Assembly: GCA_947589435.1 (NCBI GenBank) | Contig: CANQBI010000001.1 | Coordinates: forward strand, 12,740 to 76,739 | Source of the DNA: an uncultured Bacilli bacterium | Lineage (GTDB): Bacteria; Bacillota_I; Bacilli_A; RF39; UBA660 | Reading direction: 5' to 3' | DNA length: 64,000 nucleotides | Shown here: positions 294 to 40,076 of the stretch, in pieces | How positions within the stretch are numbered: position 1 is the first letter of the stretch | How the letters are laid out: each line of letters starts with the position of its first letter | The notes under the pieces: model-generated | Databases searched by the model: none | The model's input: the letters and a program-made list of their open reading frames with translations, nothing else | What the model was told of the DNA's origin: nothing | Translations under genes and position numbers: made by a program

Positions 294-1493
294 TTAGGCA
301 TTGCTTGTACTAGTAATTACATATGGACTATCTTCTGTTCCATTACCAACTAGTCCTGTTGTGGATGGTAGATAGAAGACTGGGCGAACCGCAACCGTAT
401 TGTTCACCCAATCGTAGAGCAAGTAGCCGCTCGTAACCACAGCCCACGCACCGTAAGCGCCGCTGCTGCTGAAGTAGCCATACCTAGTCATTGTCCATTC
501 GTATGTACTTCCATATGTTCCTGTTTTTCCGCTCATTGTGTTGGTAATATGCAACCAACTATTGGCGTTTGAACCATAACTCCATGAATTGTAATAATCT
601 CCACCATACATTAATCCTATTTGATATTGCCCCGTTGTTTTTGTTTTTGCTTCCGCTCCACTACTTGTTGCGTTTGTTCTATCTCCTTTCCACCATTTTA
701 CTGCTGGTATTATATTCTTTATTCCTGCGTCTAAAAAACTTCCTCCGTTTATGGCTTTCCTTACTGTGTTGTTGTTATTATCCCAATCTATATTTGTACT
801 ATAGTCTGTTGACCATGCTTGGCTTGTGCTTGTTGGGATTACCTTTATTACTTTTAACATACCTGCTTCTAAACCTAAGTCTTTTTGTTCACTTCCGTCG
901 GTTACGCCAATAATACGATATAAGTATTTATTACTTTCGGCACTTCCACATGTATCAGGATTTAGTGGTCCTCCTATACATACAAAGTTATTTGTTACTT
1001 GGTCTTTTGTTCCCTTGAATCTATATAATCCTTCTACTGCTGTTCTTTTGTCTTTTGTTCCTCCTCCATAATATTGTCCACCTTGGGCATTTAATACTTC
1101 TAAAGCAGGTCTTCCCTTACCAAAATATAAGGTACAATATATTGTCTTTTTAGTTGTTATTGTTGCCGTATTTCTATCTTCGTTAAATGTTACATATTGT
1201 TTTGTATCTCCTACATCAGTTCCACTTGCGTCTTCACATTTTGTTCCGACATATGTATATTGTGCTTTATCAGGCCATTTACTTCTATCTTCTTGTTCAT
1301 ACCATTCAAAGTCATTTTCTCCTCCACTTTGAACTTTTATTGAAAGTGTTTTATCCTTATTATTGAATACATCTACTATTTTAATATCTTCTAAAACTTC
1401 ATTGTCTTTTCTTACACTAAAGTAACTATATCCTTCATATATCATTCCAATAGTTAATATAACTAATATTACATTAAATACTTTCTTTTTCAT
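294..1493 (-). CDS. Secreted/membrane-anchored protein of unknown function. Diverged paralog (about half of residues identical by eye) of the ORF at 62776..63963.
   Basis: N-terminal hydrophobic segment. Motifs shared with the right-end paralog: ATITTKKTIYCTLYF, GRPALEVL, YRIIGVTDG, GLxAGMLKVIK, SQAWS, IGLMY..DYYNSW, AVRPVFYL near the C-terminus. Forms an operon-like pair with 1503..2207. Confidence 0.6.
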   Translation of the reverse strand: MKKKVFNVILVILTIGMIYEGYSYFSVRKDNEVLEDIKIVDVFNNKDKTLSIKVQSGGENDFEWYEQEDRSKWPDKAQYTYVGTKCEDASGTDVGDTKQYVTFNEDRNTATITTKKTIYCTLYFGKGRPALEVLNAQGGQYYGGGTKDKRTAVEGLYRFKGTKDQVTNNFVCIGGPLNPDTCGSAESNKYLYRIIGVTDGSEQKDLGLEAGMLKVIKVIPTSTSQAWSTDYSTNIDWDNNNNTVRKAINGGSFLDAGIKNIIPAVKWWKGDRTNATSSGAEAKTKTTGQYQIGLMYGGDYYNSWSYGSNANSWLHITNTMSGKTGTYGSTYEWTMTRYGYFSSSGAYGAWAVVTSGYLLYDWVNNTVAVRPVFYLPSTTGLVGNGTEDSPYVITSTSNA

Positions 1494-1502
1494 ATTTCCT
1501 CC

Positions 1503-2207
1503 TTAACTTTTATTAAAATATGCATAACATATATTTGGGCCATCTGTTTCAAATGAAAAGCCTTTACTTGTATCATAACTTATCGTTGTTTTAGCATTAT
1601 TTGTAGTATTACAACCAGATATTGTATTATCATATGTATAACCACTTGTTGGTATATCTTCTATCATTGTGTAATGTTTATTATTTTTTATTACCATTCC
1701 TAATGAATCTTCAATTAAAGCAAATACTATTACATCATCTTGGGTTAAATCTTTTCCATAATCATAATATATCCTGCATACCACTTGATTAGGATTATCT
1801 TGTGACATTTCTACAGTTACTAGTCCATCTTCTGAAATAGAATATACTTTTTCTTCATGCATTGTATACGTTCCACTTGTTGGTATGCAATTACTCTTTT
1901 TATCATTTACGACATATCCTGATACTAAAGCAGGTGTTCCTTCCATAATTGTATAATTCTTTGGATTAGTTACATCTTGTACATAAAACATTAAATTAAC
2001 ATCCGTTGTTCTATCAGTTAAAGGAGAAGTATCTCCCTTACCACTAAAGTTTCCTACTCTACTGGTAAATATAGGCACAGGATCTGTTTCACTGCTATAA
2101 TAAGCATAAGTGTTTTTTAAACATATAAATAAAGTTATTACAAAAAGACATATAACAAAATATATAACTTTTATATTTAACAATTTTTTCAATTTTTCTC
2201 TTATCAT
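1503..2207 (-). CDS. Secreted protein with a SipW-cognate (TasA/camelysin-type) signal-peptide motif. Paralog of 62031..62762.
   Basis: TM/signal segment followed by KNTYAYYSSETDPVPIFTS, which resembles the xGTxAxFxD motif next to the SipW cleavage site in TasA/CalY-class proteins. Conserved C-terminus (VVCRIYY, SKGF.F.T.G.NIC..YF) shared with 62031..62762. Confidence 0.55.
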   Translation of the reverse strand: MIREKLKKLLNIKVIYFVICLFVITLFICLKNTYAYYSSETDPVPIFTSRVGNFSGKGDTSPLTDRTTDVNLMFYVQDVTNPKNYTIMEGTPALVSGYVVNDKKSNCIPTSGTYTMHEEKVYSISEDGLVTVEMSQDNPNQVVCRIYYDYGKDLTQDDVIVFALIEDSLGMVIKNNKHYTMIEDIPTSGYTYDNTISGCNTTNNAKTTISYDTSKGFSFETDGPNICYAYFNKS

Positions 2208-2328: not shown

Positions 2329-2364
2329 TTTTTAACTATGGTTAAATGTTTACTAGGTGATATT

Positions 2365-2589
2365 ATGAATAGAATTAGAGAAATAAGAGAAGATAAAGAT
2401 TTAACTCAAACTGAGGTGGCTAAAAAAATTGGCATAACTCAAAGAAATTATAGTTACATTGAAACGGGTAGAACAATGCTTACAGAAGATATTTTAGTAA
2501 AACTAGCCGAATTATATAATACAAGTACTGATTACATTTTATATAGAACTGATGAAAGAAAACCATATAAAAAATCAATAGTCAAATAA
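2365..2589 (+). CDS. XRE-family helix-turn-helix transcriptional regulator
   Basis: MNRIREIREDKDLTQTEVAKKIGITQRNYSYIETG is a typical Cro/C1 HTH. C-terminal DYILYRTDER is shared with the XRE genes at 60.8-61.8 kb. The ORF track starts at 2338; the internal ATG at 2365 is more likely. Confidence 0.75.
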   Translation: MNRIREIREDKDLTQTEVAKKIGITQRNYSYIETGRTMLTEDILVKLAELYNTSTDYILYRTDERKPYKKSIVK

Positions 2590-2601
2590 GGAATAATATA
2601 A

Positions 2602-2828
2602 ATGAACATAAATAGATTAAAAGAAATTCGAGAGGACAAAGACTACTCTCAAAAAGATATAGCTAAAATACTTAAAACTACACAACAGCAATATTCAAAA
2701 TATGAACTAGGTATCCAATTAATACCATAGATAGATTATGTATTCTAGCGGATTTTTACAATGTTAGTTTGGACTATTTATTATCAAGAAGTGATGATTG
2801 TAAAATATATTCTAAAACAAAAATATAA
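2602..2828 (+). pseudogene. Frameshifted XRE-family HTH regulator
   Basis: MNINRLKEIREDKDYSQKDIAKILKTTQQQYSKYELG runs into a stop. The C-terminal part IDRLCILADFYNVSLDYLLSRSDD continues in another frame. Confidence 0.55.
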
Positions 2829-2831
2829 TAA

Positions 2832-3128
2832 TTATTTTCTAAAGAATTCTCTTATATCTTCTTCTAAAGCATCTGCTATAAAGCCTAAATAATCTATCGT
2901 TACATGCTTACATCTTTTAGTATTTTCTATGTCACAAATATATTGTCTCGTTCCTCCAATTAAGTCGGCTATATCCTGTTGGGTATAGCCATATTTTTTT
3001 CTTAATCTTTTTAAGTTATTTCTCACAATATTATAATAATATTCTACATCGTGCAAATTATTTTTCATTTTTATATACTTTTCCATTATAAATATATTAT
3101 ATATAACATTTTTTTGTATATATATCAT
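2832..3128 (-). CDS. XRE-family HTH transcriptional regulator (start may be the internal Met at 3086)
   Basis: LKRLRKKYGYTQQDIADLIGGTRQYICDIENTKR HTH motif. Confidence 0.65.
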   Translation of the reverse strand: MIYIQKNVIYNIFIMEKYIKMKNNLHDVEYYYNIVRNNLKRLRKKYGYTQQDIADLIGGTRQYICDIENTKRCKHVTIDYLGFIADALEEDIREFFRK

Positions 3129-3207
3129 AAATAAATATTATTGACAATATGTTACATTTATGATATTTTAATTTTATCAGAGAGTGTAACAAAAAGGAGA
3201 ATGTTTT

Positions 3208-3510
3208 ATGGAAAATGTATCTAATACTATTAATATGAGTTTTAGAGTTGATAAAACACTTAAAAATGATGCAGATATTTTATTTAAAAAACTTGGACTT
3301 AACACAAGTGTGGCTTTAAACATGTTTTTAAGTCAATGTGTAAGAGAGCAATCATTGCCTTTTGTTCCTTCAATGAATGTAAGCGAAAGTAATAAACCTT
3401 CAAAAAGACTTATTAAAGCTACTAAAGAAGCCGAAGATATTTTATCAGGAAAAATCAAAGTTAAAGGCTATAATAATGTTGATGAGTTTATTAATGATAT
3501 GCTTAAGTGA
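3208..3510 (+). CDS. RelB/DinJ-family ribbon-helix-helix antitoxin
   Basis: MSFRVDKTLKNDADILFKKLGLNTSVALNMFLSQCVREQSLPF matches the DinJ pattern (..K..A..vl..GL.......l.......E..lPF). Its stop overlaps the next ORF's start (GTGA). Confidence 0.7.
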   Translation: MENVSNTINMSFRVDKTLKNDADILFKKLGLNTSVALNMFLSQCVREQSLPFVPSMNVSESNKPSKRLIKATKEAEDILSGKIKVKGYNNVDEFINDMLK

Positions 3511-4076
3511 TTAAAACTTTAACAAAAACAAAGCCAAGAACAAAAGGAACATCAGAAATTAAAAAAGAATTTAAAAATAAAAATACTAATTATTATAATA
3601 TTACACAAGAATGGCTTAAAAAATCTAACCCTAGTACTCCTTCAATTAAAGATGCTATTTCTGTAACAATTAACAACGAAACTTTTATGGTTGGGAAATT
3701 AAATAAAATCATTCATGAAAACAACGAAGTAGAAGTAGCAAAGTGGTTAAGCAAAACCTTTAAAGAAAATATTGAGTATTTGCCAAACATTAAAGAAAAA
3801 GAAGGAATACAATGTGCTGACTATATTTTTAAAAATGAATTTTGGGATTTAAAGGAATTAATTGGTAATGGAAAAAGGACATTAGAAGATGCTATTAAAA
3901 AGAAGAAAAAGCAAGCAAGTAATTTTATAATAGATATAACAAATTCCAAAATGTCAAAAGAAGAACTACTTAAACAAGCAATAAAAATATATAATGGTAA
4001 ATCTTTAAAATGGATTGATAAAATAATATTAAAAAAGAATAATGAATTAATTGCAGTTTTAAAAAGAAAAAAATAG
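3507..4076 (+). CDS. Lys-rich 189-aa protein translationally coupled to the DinJ-like gene. Candidate toxin partner of unclassified family.
   Basis: GTG start overlaps the TGA of 3208..3510. Basic, Lys-rich. No recognisable RelE/YafQ, PIN, Fic or P-loop signature. Followed by a strong hairpin terminator. Confidence 0.5.
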   Translation: MIKTLTKTKPRTKGTSEIKKEFKNKNTNYYNITQEWLKKSNPSTPSIKDAISVTINNETFMVGKLNKIIHENNEVEVAKWLSKTFKENIEYLPNIKEKEGIQCADYIFKNEFWDLKELIGNGKRTLEDAIKKKKKQASNFIIDITNSKMSKEELLKQAIKIYNGKSLKWIDKIILKKNNELIAVLKRKK

Positions 4077-4186
4077 ATTGATCCCAACCCGTACGGGTCA
4101 AGACCAATCTACTGATTACATTATACAACTTTTTTTTGCTTGTGTCAAAAATAAAACACAAATTTTTATAATTTATTTGCATTTTA

Positions 4187-4212
4187 AAAGGACAATCGCT
4201 GTCCTTTTTTAT
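4187..4212. terminator. Bidirectional rho-independent terminator (aaaaGGACAatcgcTGTCCtttttt)
   Basis: Perfect 5-bp stem flanked by an A-run and a T-run, between convergent genes (3507..4076 on + and divIC on -). Confidence 0.6.
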
Positions 4213-6676: not shown

Positions 6677-7720
6677 TTGCAAATGCTTCTGTTTTATGTT
6701 ATCATAATTGCTAATTTAAGGGGGTTCATTTTTATGACAAATTTAACAAAGTATGAAAAAAATTTAAAAAAAGCCCAAAATGCCGATAAAATAGTTTATT
6801 ACGATTATATACAATATAAAAGAGCAGCTGGATGGTGGTCAGGATTACATAGTGATGATTGGCATCGACCTAATATAATTAAAAAAGCAAGATATAATGG
6901 TACATTTTTACAAAAATTGCCTCAATATTATTTTTTAGGATTTCCAATAAAAGAATTACTAAAAGAAAATTATTCTAATGGCTACTGTCATGCTTGTGCT
7001 GTTGCCTTAAGTTTATATTTTAAAGATTTTGAAATAATAACTTGCAATTTACAAAATTATGCAGAATATTATACAAAGAAATCAGGAAGAAAAACAGATT
7101 ATGAGCATACATTTTTATTAATTGATTTAAATAACAATAAAACGGTAATAGATACAACATTTGGCTTTATTACTGACTTCGAAACTTATAAGAAAATATT
7201 TAATCCAAATAATATTAGAATTATAACTTCGGAACAACTAAAAAAAGTAAAACCATATCAATTTATAAAATCATTAAAAGACTATTCTGGTGCACCACTT
7301 GGATTTAATGAAGTATACGACGAGGAAAAACAAAAATGGCATCCAAATGAGGAAGCCCAAAAACATCAAAGAATTATGCAAGAATATATGAATATGTGTC
7401 AAAATTATAACAACACTCAAAATCCTCATTTAACGGATTTTATTAACAGATGTTTATTTAAAACTTCTAATAGTGAGTGCCTTTGGCTTTGGAGACTTGA
7501 TTTAAGTCACAAGGAAGTAGGTAATACAAAGTTTGACTATCCAAAAACAAATTTATTTTCTTTAGAAGATGATGAATATGATGAAAATCTATATAGCCCT
7601 TATGAAGATACTACTTCTATAAATGAACAAGTACTACTTAGTTATCATAACCTAGAGAGCAATATTACCCCTAATGTAAAAATTAGAGTTCGCAACTTTA
7701 TAAATAAAATAAAAATATAA
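6677..7720 (+). CDS. Hypothetical protein with a possible Cys-His-Asp papain/transglutaminase-like core (start probably the internal Met near 6734)
   Basis: GYCHACAVALSLYF followed by YEHTFLLI and IDTTFG, spaced like a Cys, His, Asp triad. Transcribed against the local replication direction. Confidence 0.3.
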   Translation: MQMLLFYVIIIANLRGFIFMTNLTKYEKNLKKAQNADKIVYYDYIQYKRAAGWWSGLHSDDWHRPNIIKKARYNGTFLQKLPQYYFLGFPIKELLKENYSNGYCHACAVALSLYFKDFEIITCNLQNYAEYYTKKSGRKTDYEHTFLLIDLNNNKTVIDTTFGFITDFETYKKIFNPNNIRIITSEQLKKVKPYQFIKSLKDYSGAPLGFNEVYDEEKQKWHPNEEAQKHQRIMQEYMNMCQNYNNTQNPHLTDFINRCLFKTSNSECLWLWRLDLSHKEVGNTKFDYPKTNLFSLEDDEYDENLYSPYEDTTSINEQVLLSYHNLESNITPNVKIRVRNFINKIKI

Positions 7721-34873: not shown

Positions 34874-36229
34874 TTATAACTTTGATTTAATATCTTTTAA
34901 CAAGTTATCTAAATTATGATTATTTTTTAAATCATTTTTGATTTTCTCACAACTAGCTACAACTGTGGAATGATCTCGGCCTCCAAATTCTAAACCAATT
35001 TTAGCTAGATTTTCTTCGGTTTCTATTCGACATAAGTACATGGCAATATGTCTGGGTCTTGCAATATTATTACTTCTTCTTTTACTTTTTAAATCCTCAA
35101 CAGTTATTTTAAAGTAATCAGCCACCACTTTTTGAATATGGGATATCGTATTTTCTTGATATATATTGGTACTTACATAATCTTTTAAAGCTTCGACCGC
35201 AAAATCTAAGTTAATAACCTCGGGAGCCATCATGGCGGTATAAGCAAGTAATCTATTAATAGTGCCTTCAATGTGTCTTACATCATTCGGACAAGCATTA
35301 GCAATATATTCGATAACATCTTTATTTATCTTATCTTTAATTGAAGAATTTTTTAATTTCTGTTTAATTATTTCACATCTTAGTTCAAATTCCGGTGGAC
35401 AAATATCTACCGGAAGTCCCCAGGCAAACCGACTTTGGAGTCTTTCCTCAATCTTTTTTAAATCATCCGGGCTCCGGTCACTCGATATAATAATCTGTTT
35501 ATTGGCTTGATTTAAAGCTTCAAAAGTGTGGAAAAATTCTTGTTGAGTTTTCTCTGCTCCCACTAGAAACTGGATATCATCGATGATTAAGACATCAACA
35601 TTGCGATATTTATTTTTAAAGTTATTGGCATATTGAATACTTTCTTTGCCATTTTCCATCTTGGAAATACCCGTATATTCATCCCTAAAATCACTACTGG
35701 TAGTATATAAAACTTTTTTATTGGAATGTTCTGTTATATAGTTACCTATTGCATGCATTAAATGCGTTTTCCCAAGACCACTTCTTCCATATATAAATAA
35801 AGGATTCCTTGTTGTTCCCGGAGCTTGAGCCACATTCATTGCGGAAATAAAGGCTAGTCTATTGGATTCTCCCACTACAAAGTTATCAAAATTAAGGTTA
35901 GGATTTAAATTCGTATTCCACTCGATTGTTTGATATTCTTCCTCAATTGCTTCTTCTAAAGTTTTATTATTTTCTTCTTGGATTTCTTCATCGGTTAAAA
36001 ATTTAAAATTATAATTAATTCCTGTTAAGGAATATAAAGTATCATTAAGTAAATCAATATATTGTAATTTAAGTATTTGTTTATGAATCGCTAAAGGTAC
36101 TTTGATAACAATATCTTTGTCATCCATACTGATAAGTTCTAAACCCTTAAACCAGGTGGCAAAAGAAGTTGGACTTACATCTTGTTCAAGTTCTTTTAAC
36201 AAATCTTTAAATACATCTTGAGTTTTCAA
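34874..36229 (-). CDS. dnaA: Chromosomal replication initiator DnaA
   Basis: GRSGLGKTHL Walker A. AAA+ box VII. C-terminal DNA-binding helix (RPRHIAMYLCR, GGRDHSTV). Confidence 0.95.
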   Translation of the reverse strand: MKTQDVFKDLLKELEQDVSPTSFATWFKGLELISMDDKDIVIKVPLAIHKQILKLQYIDLLNDTLYSLTGINYNFKFLTDEEIQEENNKTLEEAIEEEYQTIEWNTNLNPNLNFDNFVVGESNRLAFISAMNVAQAPGTTRNPLFIYGRSGLGKTHLMHAIGNYITEHSNKKVLYTTSSDFRDEYTGISKMENGKESIQYANNFKNKYRNVDVLIIDDIQFLVGAEKTQQEFFHTFEALNQANKQIIISSDRSPDDLKKIEERLQSRFAWGLPVDICPPEFELRCEIIKQKLKNSSIKDKINKDVIEYIANACPNDVRHIEGTINRLLAYTAMMAPEVINLDFAVEALKDYVSTNIYQENTISHIQKVVADYFKITVEDLKSKRRSNNIARPRHIAMYLCRIETEENLAKIGLEFGGRDHSTVVASCEKIKNDLKNNHNLDNLLKDIKSKL

Positions 36230-36606
36230 CTTACCTCACCCCGCTATCATACCTATCCCAAAATAATTGTAACATTAAACCAAATTTAATAAAAGAATAA
36301 TTTGCATTGTTAATAGTTATCCACAAGTTTTCCACCTAATTTTCTTTGATAAAATCTATCATACACAAAGTTATCAACATTTTCAACATTTTTTTGTTAA
36401 CTTTTTAACTTATCAACATGTTAATAAATTATTTAGGTTTGTTAATAATGTTGAAAACTTAATTTATATAGGATATACCTATGTTATCTTATGATATTTG
36501 CAAACAAATTAAAAACTTTTAGGTGTTAATAATTAAAATATCCATTGTTTTTTCCACATTTTAGTTATAAAATAGTTAACTATTAAAGTTAAAAAGAGGG
36601 ACTAAT
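36230..36606. promoter_or_regulatory. oriC / dnaA promoter region with a DnaA-box cluster
   Basis: Perfect DnaA box TTATCCACA at 36316..36324. Near-consensus boxes TTTTCCACC (36327), TTATCAACA (36371 and 36410), TTTTCCACA (36550). Very AT-rich. Coincides with the global gene-strand switch. Confidence 0.8.
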
Positions 36607-38469
36607 ATGGATGAACTTAAAATAATTAAGAAAAAATATGGCGAAGAAATGATGCATTATATTAGAGATAACTTTGCTAGTATATTAGAAAAAAATGGCC
36701 AAATGCTTAATCTTTTAACTAATCATTTTAATGAAAGTCATAGTCTATATGAAGATCTATATAATAATGGTTTACGATATAATTTTAAAGAATACATCTA
36801 TAGTTTAACAGATGAATCAAAGCCCAAAAAAATTGAAAAAGATTTAAAGTCGCCAAAAGAATTACTAGAGTCAGTTGGATATGATTTATATGAGTGTAAG
36901 AGTGAAGAAGATATTCAAAAGTTTAAAAAGTATTATGCTCATGGTGAAGAGTTATGTACTTTTAATGGGGGAAGATTAGAAAGATGTTATGTATTTTTTG
37001 CGGTTAAAAAGAATGTTTTAGATATTAAAAGAGAAAACTTTCCTAATCCCCAAAGACAAGATGCCTATGGCACAAGCATCTTAAGTATTCAATTTGATCG
37101 AACTGTATCTCATAGATTATCTATTAAAAATCGCTATAATCATCATGTCAATAATCCGGATAGTACTTTTTCCAATAATTTAGATAATATAGTAGAAGGT
37201 TTAACAGCAGCTTTTGCTAAATACTATGGTTTAAAACAAGAAATTAAAAGTTCTAATTTTGAAATAAATGGTTATGTTAGAGCGAGTGATGGTAAATTTT
37301 ATAAATATAATCTTGAAATAGATAATGTTTATTACTGTCCCGATAATATAATAATTAAAAATGATGGTAATGTTAAGAAATATCCTAAAGAAAAGTATCT
37401 TATTTTTGATTATTTTATTTTAAATTTAGAAACTAAAAAAATTGAAAGTTATACTAGTGAAAATGATGGGTTTATCCATAGCTTAGGTAAAATAAAAAAA
37501 ATTACAATAACCAATAAAAAAGATTATAAGGAATTATTAATATATAATGAAGATGGCTTTGAAATAACAATTAATTTAGATAAAAATAACAGTATTATAA
37601 TGGTTGATAATTCCTATGTTAAAGAAATAAAGGAAAATTATTTGTTATATAATTATAGATGTCAAAAAATATATCTTTCTAATGTTAAAAAGATAAGTTC
37701 TAATTTTATGAAAGCAAACCTAGATTTAGAAGAAATATTTTTACCAAAATGTGAAACTATAACTGATGACTTTTTACATAATAATTTAAAATTAAAAACC
37801 TTTTATTTTCCTAATGTAACTTTTATTGGCAATAATTTTTTAAAATTCAATAGTATTATAGAGGACATTTCTTTACCAATATGTAAAACTATTAAAAATG
37901 ATTTTTTATATTTTAATACTGATTGTAAAAAAATAGATATGCCTATGTTGGAAACAGTAGAAAGAAATTTTATGATGTATAATAAAGAATTAGAAACAAT
38001 AAATTTGCCATCTTTAGTTTCGACTGATCGAAATTTTTTATGTTCTAATATTATTTGTAAAAAGATAAATATGCCTAAGTTAGAAACAATAGGCAAAAAC
38101 TTTATGAGTGATAATAAATGTTTAGAAGTTATAAGTCTTCCTTCTTTAAAATATATATGTGAACATTTTTTATATAATATAGAGGAAATTAAAATCTTAT
38201 ATCTGCCGGATGTTTACTATATTTTTGGTAATATTTTAGGATGTTCTAAAATAGAAGCAGCTATCCTTCCTAATCTTATATCTATATCATCTTATCCACA
38301 ATTTTTTGAAATAACCAAATATTTATATGCTCCCAAGTTAGAAAAAGTTTCTGATATTTCATTTTTTAAAAATACACAATATTGTTATACACCACTTTTA
38401 AAAGAATTTTGTAATACCGAAGATATAATTTTAGAAAGTAATCAAATAAAATTAAAAAGATGTAAGTGA
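36607..38469 (+). CDS. Leucine-rich-repeat (BspA/LRR_5-like) protein with a unique 340-aa N-terminal domain and no signal peptide
   Basis: C-terminal half made of about 22-23-aa repeats (L..I.LP.L..I...FL..N..L). No N-terminal hydrophobic segment. Confidence 0.6.
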   Translation: MDELKIIKKKYGEEMMHYIRDNFASILEKNGQMLNLLTNHFNESHSLYEDLYNNGLRYNFKEYIYSLTDESKPKKIEKDLKSPKELLESVGYDLYECKSEEDIQKFKKYYAHGEELCTFNGGRLERCYVFFAVKKNVLDIKRENFPNPQRQDAYGTSILSIQFDRTVSHRLSIKNRYNHHVNNPDSTFSNNLDNIVEGLTAAFAKYYGLKQEIKSSNFEINGYVRASDGKFYKYNLEIDNVYYCPDNIIIKNDGNVKKYPKEKYLIFDYFILNLETKKIESYTSENDGFIHSLGKIKKITITNKKDYKELLIYNEDGFEITINLDKNNSIIMVDNSYVKEIKENYLLYNYRCQKIYLSNVKKISSNFMKANLDLEEIFLPKCETITDDFLHNNLKLKTFYFPNVTFIGNNFLKFNSIIEDISLPICKTIKNDFLYFNTDCKKIDMPMLETVERNFMMYNKELETINLPSLVSTDRNFLCSNIICKKINMPKLETIGKNFMSDNKCLEVISLPSLKYICEHFLYNIEEIKILYLPDVYYIFGNILGCSKIEAAILPNLISISSYPQFFEITKYLYAPKLEKVSDISFFKNTQYCYTPLLKEFCNTEDIILESNQIKLKRCK

Positions 38470-38493
38470 TATGAGTAAAATTCCTTTATTTTC

Positions 38494-38523
38494 TTGACAT
38501 TATCCTCTTTTTAATATTATAAT
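38494..38523 (+). promoter_or_regulatory. Sigma-A-type promoter for rpmH-rnpA (TTGACA, about 18 bp spacer, TATAAT)
   Basis: TTGACA at 38494..38499 and TATAAT at 38518..38523, about 33 bp upstream of the rpmH start. Confidence 0.6.
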
Positions 38524-38555
38524 AAGGACGCTTACTGAAAGAAAGAGGTGGAATA

Positions 38556-38679
38556 CATGAAAAGAACATATCAACCAAATAATCGCAAAAAAGCTAAAAA
38601 GCACGGATTCTTTGCTCGTAAAGGTACAAAGATTATTAATAATCGTCGTAAGAAAGGTCGTAAGGAATTAACAAAATAG
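38556..38679 (+). CDS. rpmH: 50S ribosomal protein L34. Reading frame as given appears interrupted by a 1-nt insertion.
   Basis: ATG AAA AGA ACA TAT CAA CCA AAT AAA gives MKRTYQPNK. The sequence then reads aaaTcgc, where aaaCGC (K-R) is expected, and in that frame a TAA follows after a few codons. The downstream frame encodes [31 protein letters not shown], the normal L34 C-terminal portion. Confidence 0.6.
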
Positions 38680-38701
38680 TTTCTTACGGGTTTTTTTAAT
38701 T

Positions 38702-39040
38702 ATGAAAAAAAGAGATGTTGTAAAATCTAATCTTTTATTTAATGATATAATTAATAAAGGTCATAAATTAAGTAATGAATATTTTATCATTTGTCGTATG
38801 AAAAAAGATAAAGAAGCAAATAACTATGGTATTGCGGTGGGTAAAAAGATTGGTAATGCCGTAATGCGTAATCATGTTAAAAGACAAGTGCGAAATATTA
38901 TTACGCATAATATGGAGGTATTTCCAAAATTTCATAATTATATTATAATAGTAAAGAAAGAAGTATTAAATATTCCTTACGATAAAATGGAAACAATGCT
39001 TGTTAATTTAGTTAAAAAGGAGAATACTTATGAAAAATAA
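38702..39040 (+). CDS. rnpA: Ribonuclease P protein component
   Basis: Basic 112-aa protein immediately after rpmH. RNR-like motif region (VGKKIGNAVMRNHVKRQVRN). Confidence 0.9.
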   Translation: MKKRDVVKSNLLFNDIINKGHKLSNEYFIICRMKKDKEANNYGIAVGKKIGNAVMRNHVKRQVRNIITHNMEVFPKFHNYIIIVKKEVLNIPYDKMETMLVNLVKKENTYEK

Positions 39041-40076
39041 AATATTAGTTTTAATAATGATGGTGTTACTAGTTTCTGGGTGTGGCGCTAATGATTATAT
39101 AAAAGATAAGGATAATCATATTGTCGTTTATGAAGAAACAGGACAAAATTTACCTAATAATATATTATGTAAACCAGAAGAAGGAACAGACCTATATAAT
39201 CTTTATTTAGAACACGATAAGGAACTTAAAATATCTTTAAAGAAATTACCAAGTTGTCGTGATTTTAAAATAACTTCCAATAAAACTACTAGTATTTGGG
39301 AATTGTTATTTGTAAAACCTTTAGCCTTCTTAATTTTAAAACTAGGGGGACTTGTAAAAAACATGGGTATTTCCTTAATTTTAGTGGGTTTACTTATCAG
39401 AGTTATTTTACTGCCATTCTCTTATAAAACCCATAAACAAAGTAAGAATATGCAAAAGGTTAATCGAGAGATGCAAAAGTTAGAATATAAGTATCGCGGA
39501 AGAGAAGACAGGGATTCCATGATGATGAAAAGTCAAGAAATGATGGCGATTTATAAAAAATATAATGTGAAGCCAATGTCTGGTTGCTTAGTCGCATTCT
39601 TACAACTTCCTTTGTTCTTTGCTTTTCTTCAAGCCATTAATAGAGTACCAGCCATCTTTGAAGATAAACTTCTAGGCTTTAACTTGGGCATGACGCCTTA
39701 TGTTGGATTATCTAATGGTAATTACTTATATATTTTATTAATTATTCTTATTGCTTTATCAACATATTTCTCATTTAAGTATTCGATGAGTGCGGCAGGA
39801 GCCATGAACCAAACACCAGAAGCAAAAAGTCAAATGAAGATGATGACTAATATTATGGTGGTAATTATCGTAGTAACATCATTCTCTCTAACAACAGCGT
39901 TATCATTCTACTGGATTGTTACTTACGCATTTATAGCTATTCAGACATTTATCTTTAAGTGGTTATCCGGTGATATAAAAAGAAAACCTAAAAAAGATGA
40001 TAAAGATGATAAAAAGAATAAGAAGATAAAAGAAAAATTAGAAGTTAAAAGAGGTCTTAAATATGGAAATAATTAA
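39030..40076 (+). CDS. yidC: Membrane protein insertase YidC/OxaA (lipoprotein type)
   Basis: Lipobox LVSGCG. Conserved TM helices (MQKLQP-like region KNMQKVNREMQKLEYKY). Lys-rich C-tail. Confidence 0.9.
   Translation: MKNKILVLIMMVLLVSGCGANDYIKDKDNHIVVYEETGQNLPNNILCKPEEGTDLYNLYLEHDKELKISLKKLPSCRDFKITSNKTTSIWELLFVKPLAFLILKLGGLVKNMGISLILVGLLIRVILLPFSYKTHKQSKNMQKVNREMQKLEYKYRGREDRDSMMMKSQEMMAIYKKYNVKPMSGCLVAFLQLPLFFAFLQAINRVPAIFEDKLLGFNLGMTPYVGLSNGNYLYILLIILIALSTYFSFKYSMSAAGAMNQTPEAKSQMKMMTNIMVVIIVVTSFSLTTALSFYWIVTYAFIAIQTFIFKWLSGDIKRKPKKDDKDDKKNKKIKEKLEVKRGLKYGNN

Follow-up and report, generated by a model that had tools for sequence, protein, structure and literature searches.

In the type III toxin-antitoxin systems ToxIN and CptIN, a structured RNA inhibits an RNA-cleaving protein toxin, and in the Bacillus subtilis type I systems txpA/RatA and bsrG/SR4 the antitoxin overlaps the 3′ end of the toxin gene. 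A further B. subtilis type I system with a 3′-overlapping antitoxin, yonT/SR6, is the closest precedent for the mode of action proposed here (PMC5848175). The protein toxins most relevant to it belong to the family PF18451 (CdiA_C) of the PD-(D/E)XK clan, whose characterised members, CdiA-CTII of Burkholderia pseudomallei 1026b (Bp1026b) and SitA3 of Myxococcus, are tRNA-cleaving nucleases (tRNases) (PMC9990079). The corresponding domain cd13442 is already listed among the toxin C-terminal domains of the MuF proteins of temperate phages, for which small downstream open reading frames (ORFs) encoding immunity proteins are expected and no RNA partner is mentioned (Jamet et al. 2017, PMC5576092). 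Here we analysed a stretch of 64,000 nucleotides from an uncultured Bacilli bacterium (contig CANQBI010000001.1; hereafter the window), in which a relB/dinJ antitoxin gene overlaps the gene of a 189-aa protein with a CdiA_C domain, and a candidate small-RNA gene lies on the opposite strand over the 3′ end of the latter. We consider it fairly probable that this is a hybrid locus, in which a tRNase cassette has entered a yafQ gene, the hairpin RNA acts as the neutraliser and RelB serves only as a repressor. The features concerned are the following, with coordinates of the window.

3208..3510, plus strand: relB/dinJ, gene of a 100-aa ribbon-helix-helix antitoxin of a lineage normally paired with YafQ (PF04221, TIGR02384).
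3507..3567, plus strand: putative yafQ-derived 5′ end of the 189-aa ORF, about 20 codons, with a GTG start codon overlapping the relB stop codon (DNA and protein alignment).
3568..4076, plus strand: PD-(D/E)XK tRNase toxin module, with candidate catalytic residues E74, D105, D114 (with K116) and K133 (+/-1) (PF18451, AlphaFold2/Foldseek, profile).
4061..4113, minus strand: candidate small RNA of ~50 nt, with a stem formed by 4112-4095 and 4090-4073, a GUAC loop and a U-run at 4072-4061.
4120..4148, minus strand: predicted small-RNA promoter matching the sigma-70 consensus at 12/12 positions (-35 TTGACA at 4148-4143, 17-nt spacer, -10 TATAAT at 4125-4120).

Compared with CdiA-CTII of Bp1026b (4G6V; PF18451; cd13442), the 189-aa protein has the same PD-(D/E)XK fold and equivalents of the active-site residues, and both toxicity and Mg2+-dependent tRNA cleavage would be expected of it. 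It differs from 4G6V in being only ~15% identical, in being a stand-alone cytoplasmic protein rather than the tip of a secreted CdiA, in having the canonical Lys (K116) at the (D/E)XK position where 4G6V has a Tyr, and in lacking a CdiI-type immunity gene. An N-terminal beta-hairpin subdomain (residues ~26-70) that is additional to 4G6V is shared with the phage versions. The MuF toxins carry the same ~165-aa module, and the antisense RNA element also follows the phage genes (315.6, P9, SMP and IPP24), whereas the window protein has no MuF domain and lies outside a prophage. With the DinJ-YafQ/RelBE systems the locus shares the antitoxin gene, the promoter region, the codon overlap and the first ~20 toxin codons; in contrast, the RelE-fold ribonuclease of those systems is replaced in the window by an unrelated nuclease fold. 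Like the B. subtilis 3′-overlapping type I systems, which are often prophage-borne, it shows a small-RNA gene that converges on the toxin gene, is equipped with a strong promoter and an intrinsic terminator of its own, and would give an RNA able to pair with the toxin mRNA at its 3′ end. The window RNA differs from theirs in being only ~50 nt long and nearly all one hairpin, with a conserved G.U pair and extra copies in some loci. Several loci have multiple copies of the RNA gene, as in the type III systems. However, no tandem array of repeats for processing by the toxin precedes the toxin gene on the same strand: the RNA copies are encoded opposite the toxin gene, each from a separate promoter, and the window itself holds a single copy. 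Overall, the locus looks most like a 3′-overlapping type I module built on a polymorphic-toxin nuclease. It is not a classical type I system, because the 189-aa product is a soluble nuclease fold and not a small hydrophobic membrane peptide.

Residues 104-180 of the 189-aa protein match CdiA_C (PF18451) with an E value of 1.4e-13 and 51.2 bits against a gathering score of 26.6. The match spans positions 3-80 of the 81 in the profile, and the domain was also present in 13 of 14 close homologues; no NCBIfam model matched the toxin. A reading made earlier from the sequence alone (the sequence-only reading) had called the protein unclassified and without signature, which this above-threshold match overturns. 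It had also proposed a new toxin family; that part is wrong, as the domain is the CdiA-CT(Bp1026b)/cd13442 PD-(D/E)XK tRNase known among MuF toxin C-termini. Its suggestion that the downstream partner is a toxin holds up to the extent that the 189-aa protein is very probably one; remote-homology and structure searches led to a toxin family and not to a non-toxin one.

An AlphaFold2 model of the protein, built from 15 sequences, had a predicted local distance difference test score (pLDDT) of 81.5, with disorder confined to residues 1-25 (pLDDT <50). In a Foldseek search of this model against the PDB, the sole match at E<=0.001 was 4g6v_A (E=2.4e-4, probability 1.0, TM-score 0.68 relative to the target), from the CdiA-CT/CdiI complex of Burkholderia pseudomallei 1026b. 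The sequence of 4g6v_A was also matched by a profile of 68 sequences (E=4.5e-4). That match was reached because of the size of the profile: searches of the PDB sequences with phmmer and the single protein, or with a 15-sequence profile, gave only a spurious match to MutR. In the profile alignment, E74, D105, D114 and K133 (+/-1) stand opposite E187, D214, D223 and K242 of 4g6v, which are the published active site of the Mg2+-dependent Bp1026b tRNase (PMC9086364). D105 is invariant in the 68 sequences, and E74, K116 and Q136 are each conserved in >=90% of them. By sequence, fold and catalytic residues alike, the toxin domain is a member of PF18451/cd13442. The protein had been described as Lys-rich; its KKKKKQ stretch forms the helix that lies opposite the catalytic Lys242 of 4G6V in the alignment, and the GNGKR segment is the loop following beta-strand 3. 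The ratio of nonsynonymous to synonymous substitution rates (dN/dS) was ~0.22 for the toxin against 72-73% identical homologues, so that the ORF appears to be under purifying selection and the fusion not to be decaying. A CdiI-like immunity gene does not follow the toxin gene, the plus strand being free of ORFs from 4076 up to the convergent divIC gene, and no conserved small ORF was found downstream of the toxin across the homologous loci, including those of phages.

An exhaustive profile search of the toxin family gave 1,210 cluster representatives, 598 of them at E<=1e-10. In about half of the best 150 of these 1,210 relatives, the whole ~165-aa module forms the C-terminus of a protein of 350-670 aa, and in the larger relatives that were scanned the N-terminal part, where recognised, was Phage_min_cap2, Phage_Mu_F or a portal protein; fusions of these kinds number in the hundreds. 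By tblastn, the module was found in 43 phage records, of which 41 are from Streptococcus phages, including 315.6, P9, SMP and IPP24. Stand-alone versions of 147-199 aa lie between housekeeping genes in metagenome-assembled genomes (MAGs) of uncultured Bacilli and Tenericutes. The window protein is likewise free-standing, with no phage genes around it. One stand-alone toxin locus (L006, 558-2345) adjoins genes for an RVT_1 reverse transcriptase and a bAvd-like protein, and has the look of a diversity-generating retroelement.

The stem of the candidate small RNA comprises 18-19 bp, several of them G.U pairs. Because of these, the folding energy of the hairpin is -25.1 kcal/mol (z=-7.4) on the minus strand, a stable structure, but only -13.2 kcal/mol on the plus strand, a weak one. 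The sequence-only reading had taken 4072-4113 for a strong bidirectional terminator. This could not be upheld, given the stability on one strand alone and the perfect promoter directly ahead of the hairpin. The RNA would be antisense to the final 15 nt of the toxin ORF, with its stop codon, and to the first part of the 3′ untranslated region. With its own promoter and terminator, the gene has the architecture of a 3′-overlapping type I small-RNA gene, and its transcription is predicted. In the window, the A-run at 4062-4073 that encodes the Lys/Arg-rich tail of the toxin (..KRKK and the stop codon) is, on the other strand, the U-tract terminator of the small RNA; the tail is conserved across loci, and a constraint at the RNA level may shape the C-terminal end of the toxin.

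Promoter, hairpin and U-run were present in the same position in all 20 of the 20 loci examined first, which included five MuF fusions, and the same promoter-hairpin arrangement was seen in further loci that a covariance model missed. The architecture was also the same in the Streptococcus phages 315.6, SMP and IPP24 and in a group B Streptococcus phage. Under a strict criterion (promoter >=10/12, hairpin <=-12 kcal/mol and a T-run near the stop codon), the element was found at 30 of 51 non-redundant toxin 3′ ends compared with 2 of 308 other ORF 3′ ends, and at 26 of the 30 the minus-strand form of the hairpin was the more stable one. When covariance matches and inspection by eye were counted, at least 45 of the 51 toxin 3′ ends carried it. 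In a MAFFT alignment of 16 seed sequences, 7/10 outer pairs showed compensatory changes and one G.U pair was invariant; in the model-based alignment, which is fitted to the model, 95.7% of the cells were paired and 9/10 pairs were compensatory. None of 500 shuffles reached the observed covariation on four of five measures (4/500 did so on further pair types), and slid controls gave 30-54% pairing.

The covariance model gave a single significant match in the 64-kb window (51.8 bits, E=1e-8), the next best reaching 18.6 bits. In ~300 kb of related loci, every match at E<0.01 was no more than ~1 kb from a toxin gene and ran on the strand opposite it, and most of the related loci searched had a match at the 3′ end of the toxin gene. 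No Rfam family matched the hairpin in the window or in eight related loci. An integron attC-like site or a generic repeat was rejected as an identity for the hairpin, given one match in 64 kb and, elsewhere, significant matches only at ~1 kb or less from a toxin gene. A mimic of the tRNA-Pro anticodon arm was rejected too, as the UUGGGA string of the window copy is not conserved elsewhere. Additional RNA genes of this kind, clear of the toxin ORF and each with its own promoter, lie upstream in L001 and L025 and downstream in L025 and L031. Sites of extra copies are L025 3685-3740 and 4650-4708, L001 4712-4767, L024 3685-3740 and L031 4615-4661; the upstream copy is ~250 nt off and points away from the toxin gene, and the downstream copies are in tandem. 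The extra copies suggest either action in trans or the remains of lost cassettes.

Two kinds of gene were seen beside the antisense RNA gene in phages. In 10 of ~30 phage MuF-tRNase loci, tRNA genes lie on the toxin strand directly past the antisense RNA gene (L020 4602-4675; L021 4661-4737; L022 4591-4667; L023 4560-4636; L057 2105-2270; L068 2057-2133; L071 2070-2223; L072 2133-2209; L074 2134-2210; L075 2080-2236). A tRNA-Pro(UGG) is encoded in nine of the ten, L020 having only a tRNA-Gly; three loci encode a tRNA-Gly with the unusual ACC anticodon, and one a tRNA-Ser(UGA). These tRNA genes may be toxin-resistant replacements for the cut tRNAs, or decoys. Just past the antisense RNA promoter, several phage loci encode a single-pass membrane protein of 45-62 aa (for example MIAILIIIAILIFFIMCVLSAIRVELEKTRLENRE...), as at L053 ~2600-2720 (phage 315.6, SpyM3_1432), L023 4666-4803 and L029 5103-5246.

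The gene upstream of the toxin had been identified as RelB/DinJ, and this was borne out by matches to PF04221 (E=1e-8, 35.4 bits against 22.4) and TIGR02384 (66.4 bits against 45.65). Both ORFs, 3208..3510 (plus strand, 100 aa) and 3507..4076 (plus strand, 189 aa, GTG start), are real and overlap at GTGA as described. The gene directly downstream of relB encodes a CdiA_C protein rather than a partner of the RelE/YafQ/ParE type, and tblastn found no YafQ in the 64-kb window. RelB has 331 detectable homologues. The pair of RelB and CdiA_C was found only in the narrow lineage of the window, and a metagenome scan with RelB gave one locus only. The toxin-linked RelB is 100% identical in L011, L040 and L041 and 94% identical in L050, and the pair count refers to RelB of 94-100% identity; variants of 83-93% exist, whose partners fall outside it. 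The nearest RelB relatives beyond the lineage are 58-69% identical, and directly downstream of them, in every locus inspected (L042-L049, L051 and L052), lies yafQ or a yafQ pseudogene. For instance, a 95-aa YafQ with an ATGA overlap follows the 58% identical RelB of L051, and a yafQ pseudogene, also with an ATGA overlap, follows the 68% identical RelB of L052. In the latter (2812-3115), the yafQ ORF ends after 33 codons and the rest of yafQ lies past that stop, so that loss of the toxin behind this antitoxin lineage is recurrent. A RelB that is 65% identical over its full length (P0187) occurs in >800 blocks of the assembly collection and was followed by a 101-aa YafQ in 8/8 places inspected.

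The C-terminus of the window RelB keeps the consensus of YafQ-paired relatives, P..L..A..E...I..GK.K.K.Y....D, in the region that embraces the toxin in DinJ/RelB systems. No RelB gene or remnant was found upstream of the ~12 stand-alone toxin homologues in other genomes, and tblastn with RelB gave no match in six of these loci; the conserved companion of the toxin outside the window's lineage is the antisense RNA gene. Because RelB and CdiA_C were not found together in independent lineages among the loci compared, the locus is not classed here as a true type II pair. A DinJ-type gene coupled to a toxin outside the RelE/YafQ superfamily is unusual, and to this extent the sequence-only reading holds, but the pairing does not resemble a co-evolved system of a DinJ protein and its toxin.

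An origin of this pairing is indicated by the start of the 189-aa ORF. Window DNA at 3446-3577 can be aligned with L042 across its relB-yafQ junction; the alignment passes the relB stop codon and covers about the first 20 codons of the gene that follows. At the protein level, TKPRTKGTSEIKKEFKNK and the YafQ sequence TKYEVKGTSKFKKQLKKI have 10 identical residues in nearly the same register from the start codon, and in a composition-preserving shuffle the N-terminal match to this YafQ had p=0.004. The solitary cassette of L038, equipped with a promoter and a Shine-Dalgarno sequence of its own, is homologous to the window only from ~3568 onwards, and the segment ahead of this position is the part that is disordered in the AlphaFold2 model. 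The simplest reading is that the 189-aa ORF is an in-frame chimera of a YafQ N-terminus and a tRNase, formed when a cassette recombined into yafQ. The coupling of relB and toxin would then be inherited from relB-yafQ, and for that reason it is no evidence for a co-evolved pair.

We therefore propose the following course of events and mode of action for the hybrid locus. The ancestor would have been a type II operon, dinJ(relB)-yafQ, in which the stop codon of one gene overlapped the start codon of the next, and into which a cassette recombined ~20 codons inside yafQ; this cassette would have consisted of the tRNase toxin gene and the convergent small-RNA gene over its 3′ end. The chimera would have kept the relB promoter and the translational coupling, and RelB would act as a ribbon-helix-helix repressor of the shared promoter, with no binding to the toxin expected. 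The ~50-nt minus-strand hairpin RNA would be the cognate neutraliser of the toxin. Since overlap with the stop-codon region is a constant feature of the RNA gene, a type I-like route is favoured, in which a duplex of the RNA with the 3′ end of the toxin mRNA leads to cleavage of the mRNA, as with the Bacillus 3′-overlapping antitoxins. In addition or instead, the RNA could bind the tRNase as a decoy or as a type III-like antitoxin; this second route has in its favour a conserved G.U pair, covariation within the stem and the extra copies that lie clear of the toxin gene. An RNA that is the cognate antitoxin or immunity factor would explain why neither solitary genes nor phage fusions have a conserved immunity ORF. 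The broader proposition is more tentative, and we give it slightly less than an even chance: that the hairpin RNA is the immunity factor of this polymorphic-toxin tRNase throughout, from the chromosomes of gut Bacilli to the MuF toxins of Streptococcus phages, acting by 3′ antisense pairing or as a G.U pseudo-substrate.

The locus might instead be a genuine type II pair, in which RelB neutralises the tRNase and the hairpin is only a terminator or regulatory element. The 4-nt overlap and the single promoter imply co-translation of relB and the toxin, the arrangement is kept with an intact toxin ORF wherever RelB is 94-100% identical, and both genes seem constrained (dN/dS 0.27 for relB and 0.22 for the toxin); moreover, antitoxins and toxins of type II are well known to swap partner families. 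We nevertheless judge this rather unlikely. The pair is limited to one narrow lineage, the coupling is accounted for by inheritance from relB-yafQ, and the toxin-binding C-terminal half of RelB retains the YafQ-type consensus without re-tooling. In addition, the ~12 stand-alone toxins have neither RelB nor another conserved protein partner, and the hairpin has a consensus promoter of its own and covaries. It is also unlikely that the protein is not self-toxic and needs no antitoxin, being a latent defence or abortive-infection nuclease or a cutter of foreign tRNAs, with the minus-strand element tuning or terminating transcription and RelB a leftover repressor. The conserved catalytic residues and the potency of the characterised family members as tRNases argue against such a harmless role, as does the linkage of promoter and RNA to the toxin stop codon, which at 30/51 against 2/308 is hard to square with ordinary termination; PADLOC found no defence-system match at the locus. 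Nevertheless, solitary copies do sit amid housekeeping genes in many MAGs without a protein partner, the MuF fusions are structural proteins that are made in the producing cell, and the tRNA genes beside the phage versions suggest a specificity directed at host tRNAs.

That the locus is a decaying accident, a non-functional fusion pseudogene beside an orphan antitoxin, is very improbable. In favour of this reading, the adjoining XRE gene is frameshifted, the Fic gene of L050 is missing, and a related RelB, that of L052, has a yafQ pseudogene as its partner. However, the toxin ORF is intact in every sampled variant with its catalytic residues kept, its dN/dS against the 72-73% identical homologues is low, and the RNA promoter is a 12/12 match. 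The hybrid reading has weaknesses of its own. Unlike the membrane peptides of <60 aa that serve as toxins in the B. subtilis type I systems, the toxin here is a nuclease of 19 kDa or, in the fusions, the C-terminal part of a virion protein of 500 aa. The non-overlapping extra copies in L001, L025 and L031 misfit a purely cis-antisense mechanism, and a long hairpin rich in G.U pairs that immediately follows a promoter might serve a different purpose, such as transcriptional interference or acting as a roadblock. Because the alignment from the covariance model is fitted to that model, its pairing counts are somewhat inflated. The case for a yafQ remnant consists of ~20 Lys-rich codons, and the shuffle gave p=0.057 against the YafQ of L052. 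Finally, the hybrid operon is intact in >=4 sampled variants with its toxin under purifying selection, which would also fit a working pair of RelB and toxin.

In the literature searched, we found no description of the free-standing form of this toxin, of its fusion behind a DinJ gene, of a RelB and CdiA_C pair, or of an RNA partner for this toxin. The toxin domain itself is known, and the novelty lies mainly in the conserved RNA element and the probable hybrid origin. If the proposal is correct, polymorphic toxins would have their first described case of immunity by RNA, and there would be a type I-like or type III-like class of toxin-antitoxin system with a large nuclease at its centre, which would add a nuclease-sized toxin to the repertoire of RNA antitoxins. 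It would also answer the question raised by the MuF toxins of how the makers of a cytoplasmic tRNase without an immunity protein escape self-poisoning. A type II operon would have been put to a new use, as a platform that expresses a toxin cassette of foreign origin, and inferring function from neighbours, as when a gene beside relB is read as a toxin that RelB neutralises, can lead annotation astray. Culturable and well-studied systems that carry the element are the S. pyogenes prophage 315.6, the S. equi phage P9 and the S. suis phage SMP.

Around the relB-toxin pair, the window contains these further features.

2338..2589 and 2602..2730 (together 2338..2730), plus strand: tandem XRE genes, the second frameshifted (HTH_3 matches).
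2832..3128, minus strand: divergent XRE-family regulator of 98 aa, sharing its intergenic region with relB (HTH_3).
3122-3166: 22-nt imperfect inverted repeat overlapping the relB promoter-like site.
3141..3169, plus strand: relB promoter-like site, TTGACA-17-TATTTT with an extended TG, of putative function (consensus scan).
4186-4208, plus strand: predicted intrinsic terminator (terminator scan).

Terminator-like hairpins were found at 4072-4113 and 4186-4208, with three sites in the scanned region compared with 0.4 expected. The hairpin at 4186-4208 is probably the true end of the relB-toxin mRNA, which would therefore read through the entire small-RNA gene. The inverted repeat at 3122-3166 could be an operator for RelB or for an XRE protein. 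Three XRE genes had been noted near the pair, and XRE/HTH_3 matches at 2338..2589, 2602..2730 and 2832..3128 confirmed all of them. One had been described as frameshifted, and indeed 2602..2730 is truncated and its C-terminal half (IDRLCILADFYNVSLDYLL) lies in a different frame, which excludes an in-frame nonsense mutation. In the sister locus L050, whose RelB is 94% identical, both copies of the tandem XRE pair are intact (76 aa), and the divergent XRE gene is kept in L040, L041 and L050. Between the tandem pair and the divergent gene, L050 has a gene for a 359-aa Fic-domain protein (973-2052); in the window the corresponding position is ~100 bp of non-coding DNA (2731-2831) and Fic is absent. 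The region adjoining divIC thus appears to be a variable islet of toxins and regulators. It is flanked by three ORFs that have no Pfam match, at 294-1493 (minus strand, 399 aa), 1503-2207 (minus strand, 234 aa) and 6677-7720 (plus strand, 347 aa); the first two have hydrophobic N-terminal segments and a secreted or pilin-like look.

The surroundings had been described as a stretch of sporulation genes, and DivIC, YabP, SpoVG and YabG are encoded there on the minus strand. The pair was also correctly said to run against replication: GC skew is negative up to ~36 kb and positive after, so that the minus strand is the leading strand at the locus and the relB-toxin pair opposes the replication direction. 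Within 36000-40000 of the window the skew goes from about -0.25 to +0.27, and the chromosomal replication origin probably lies inside the window.

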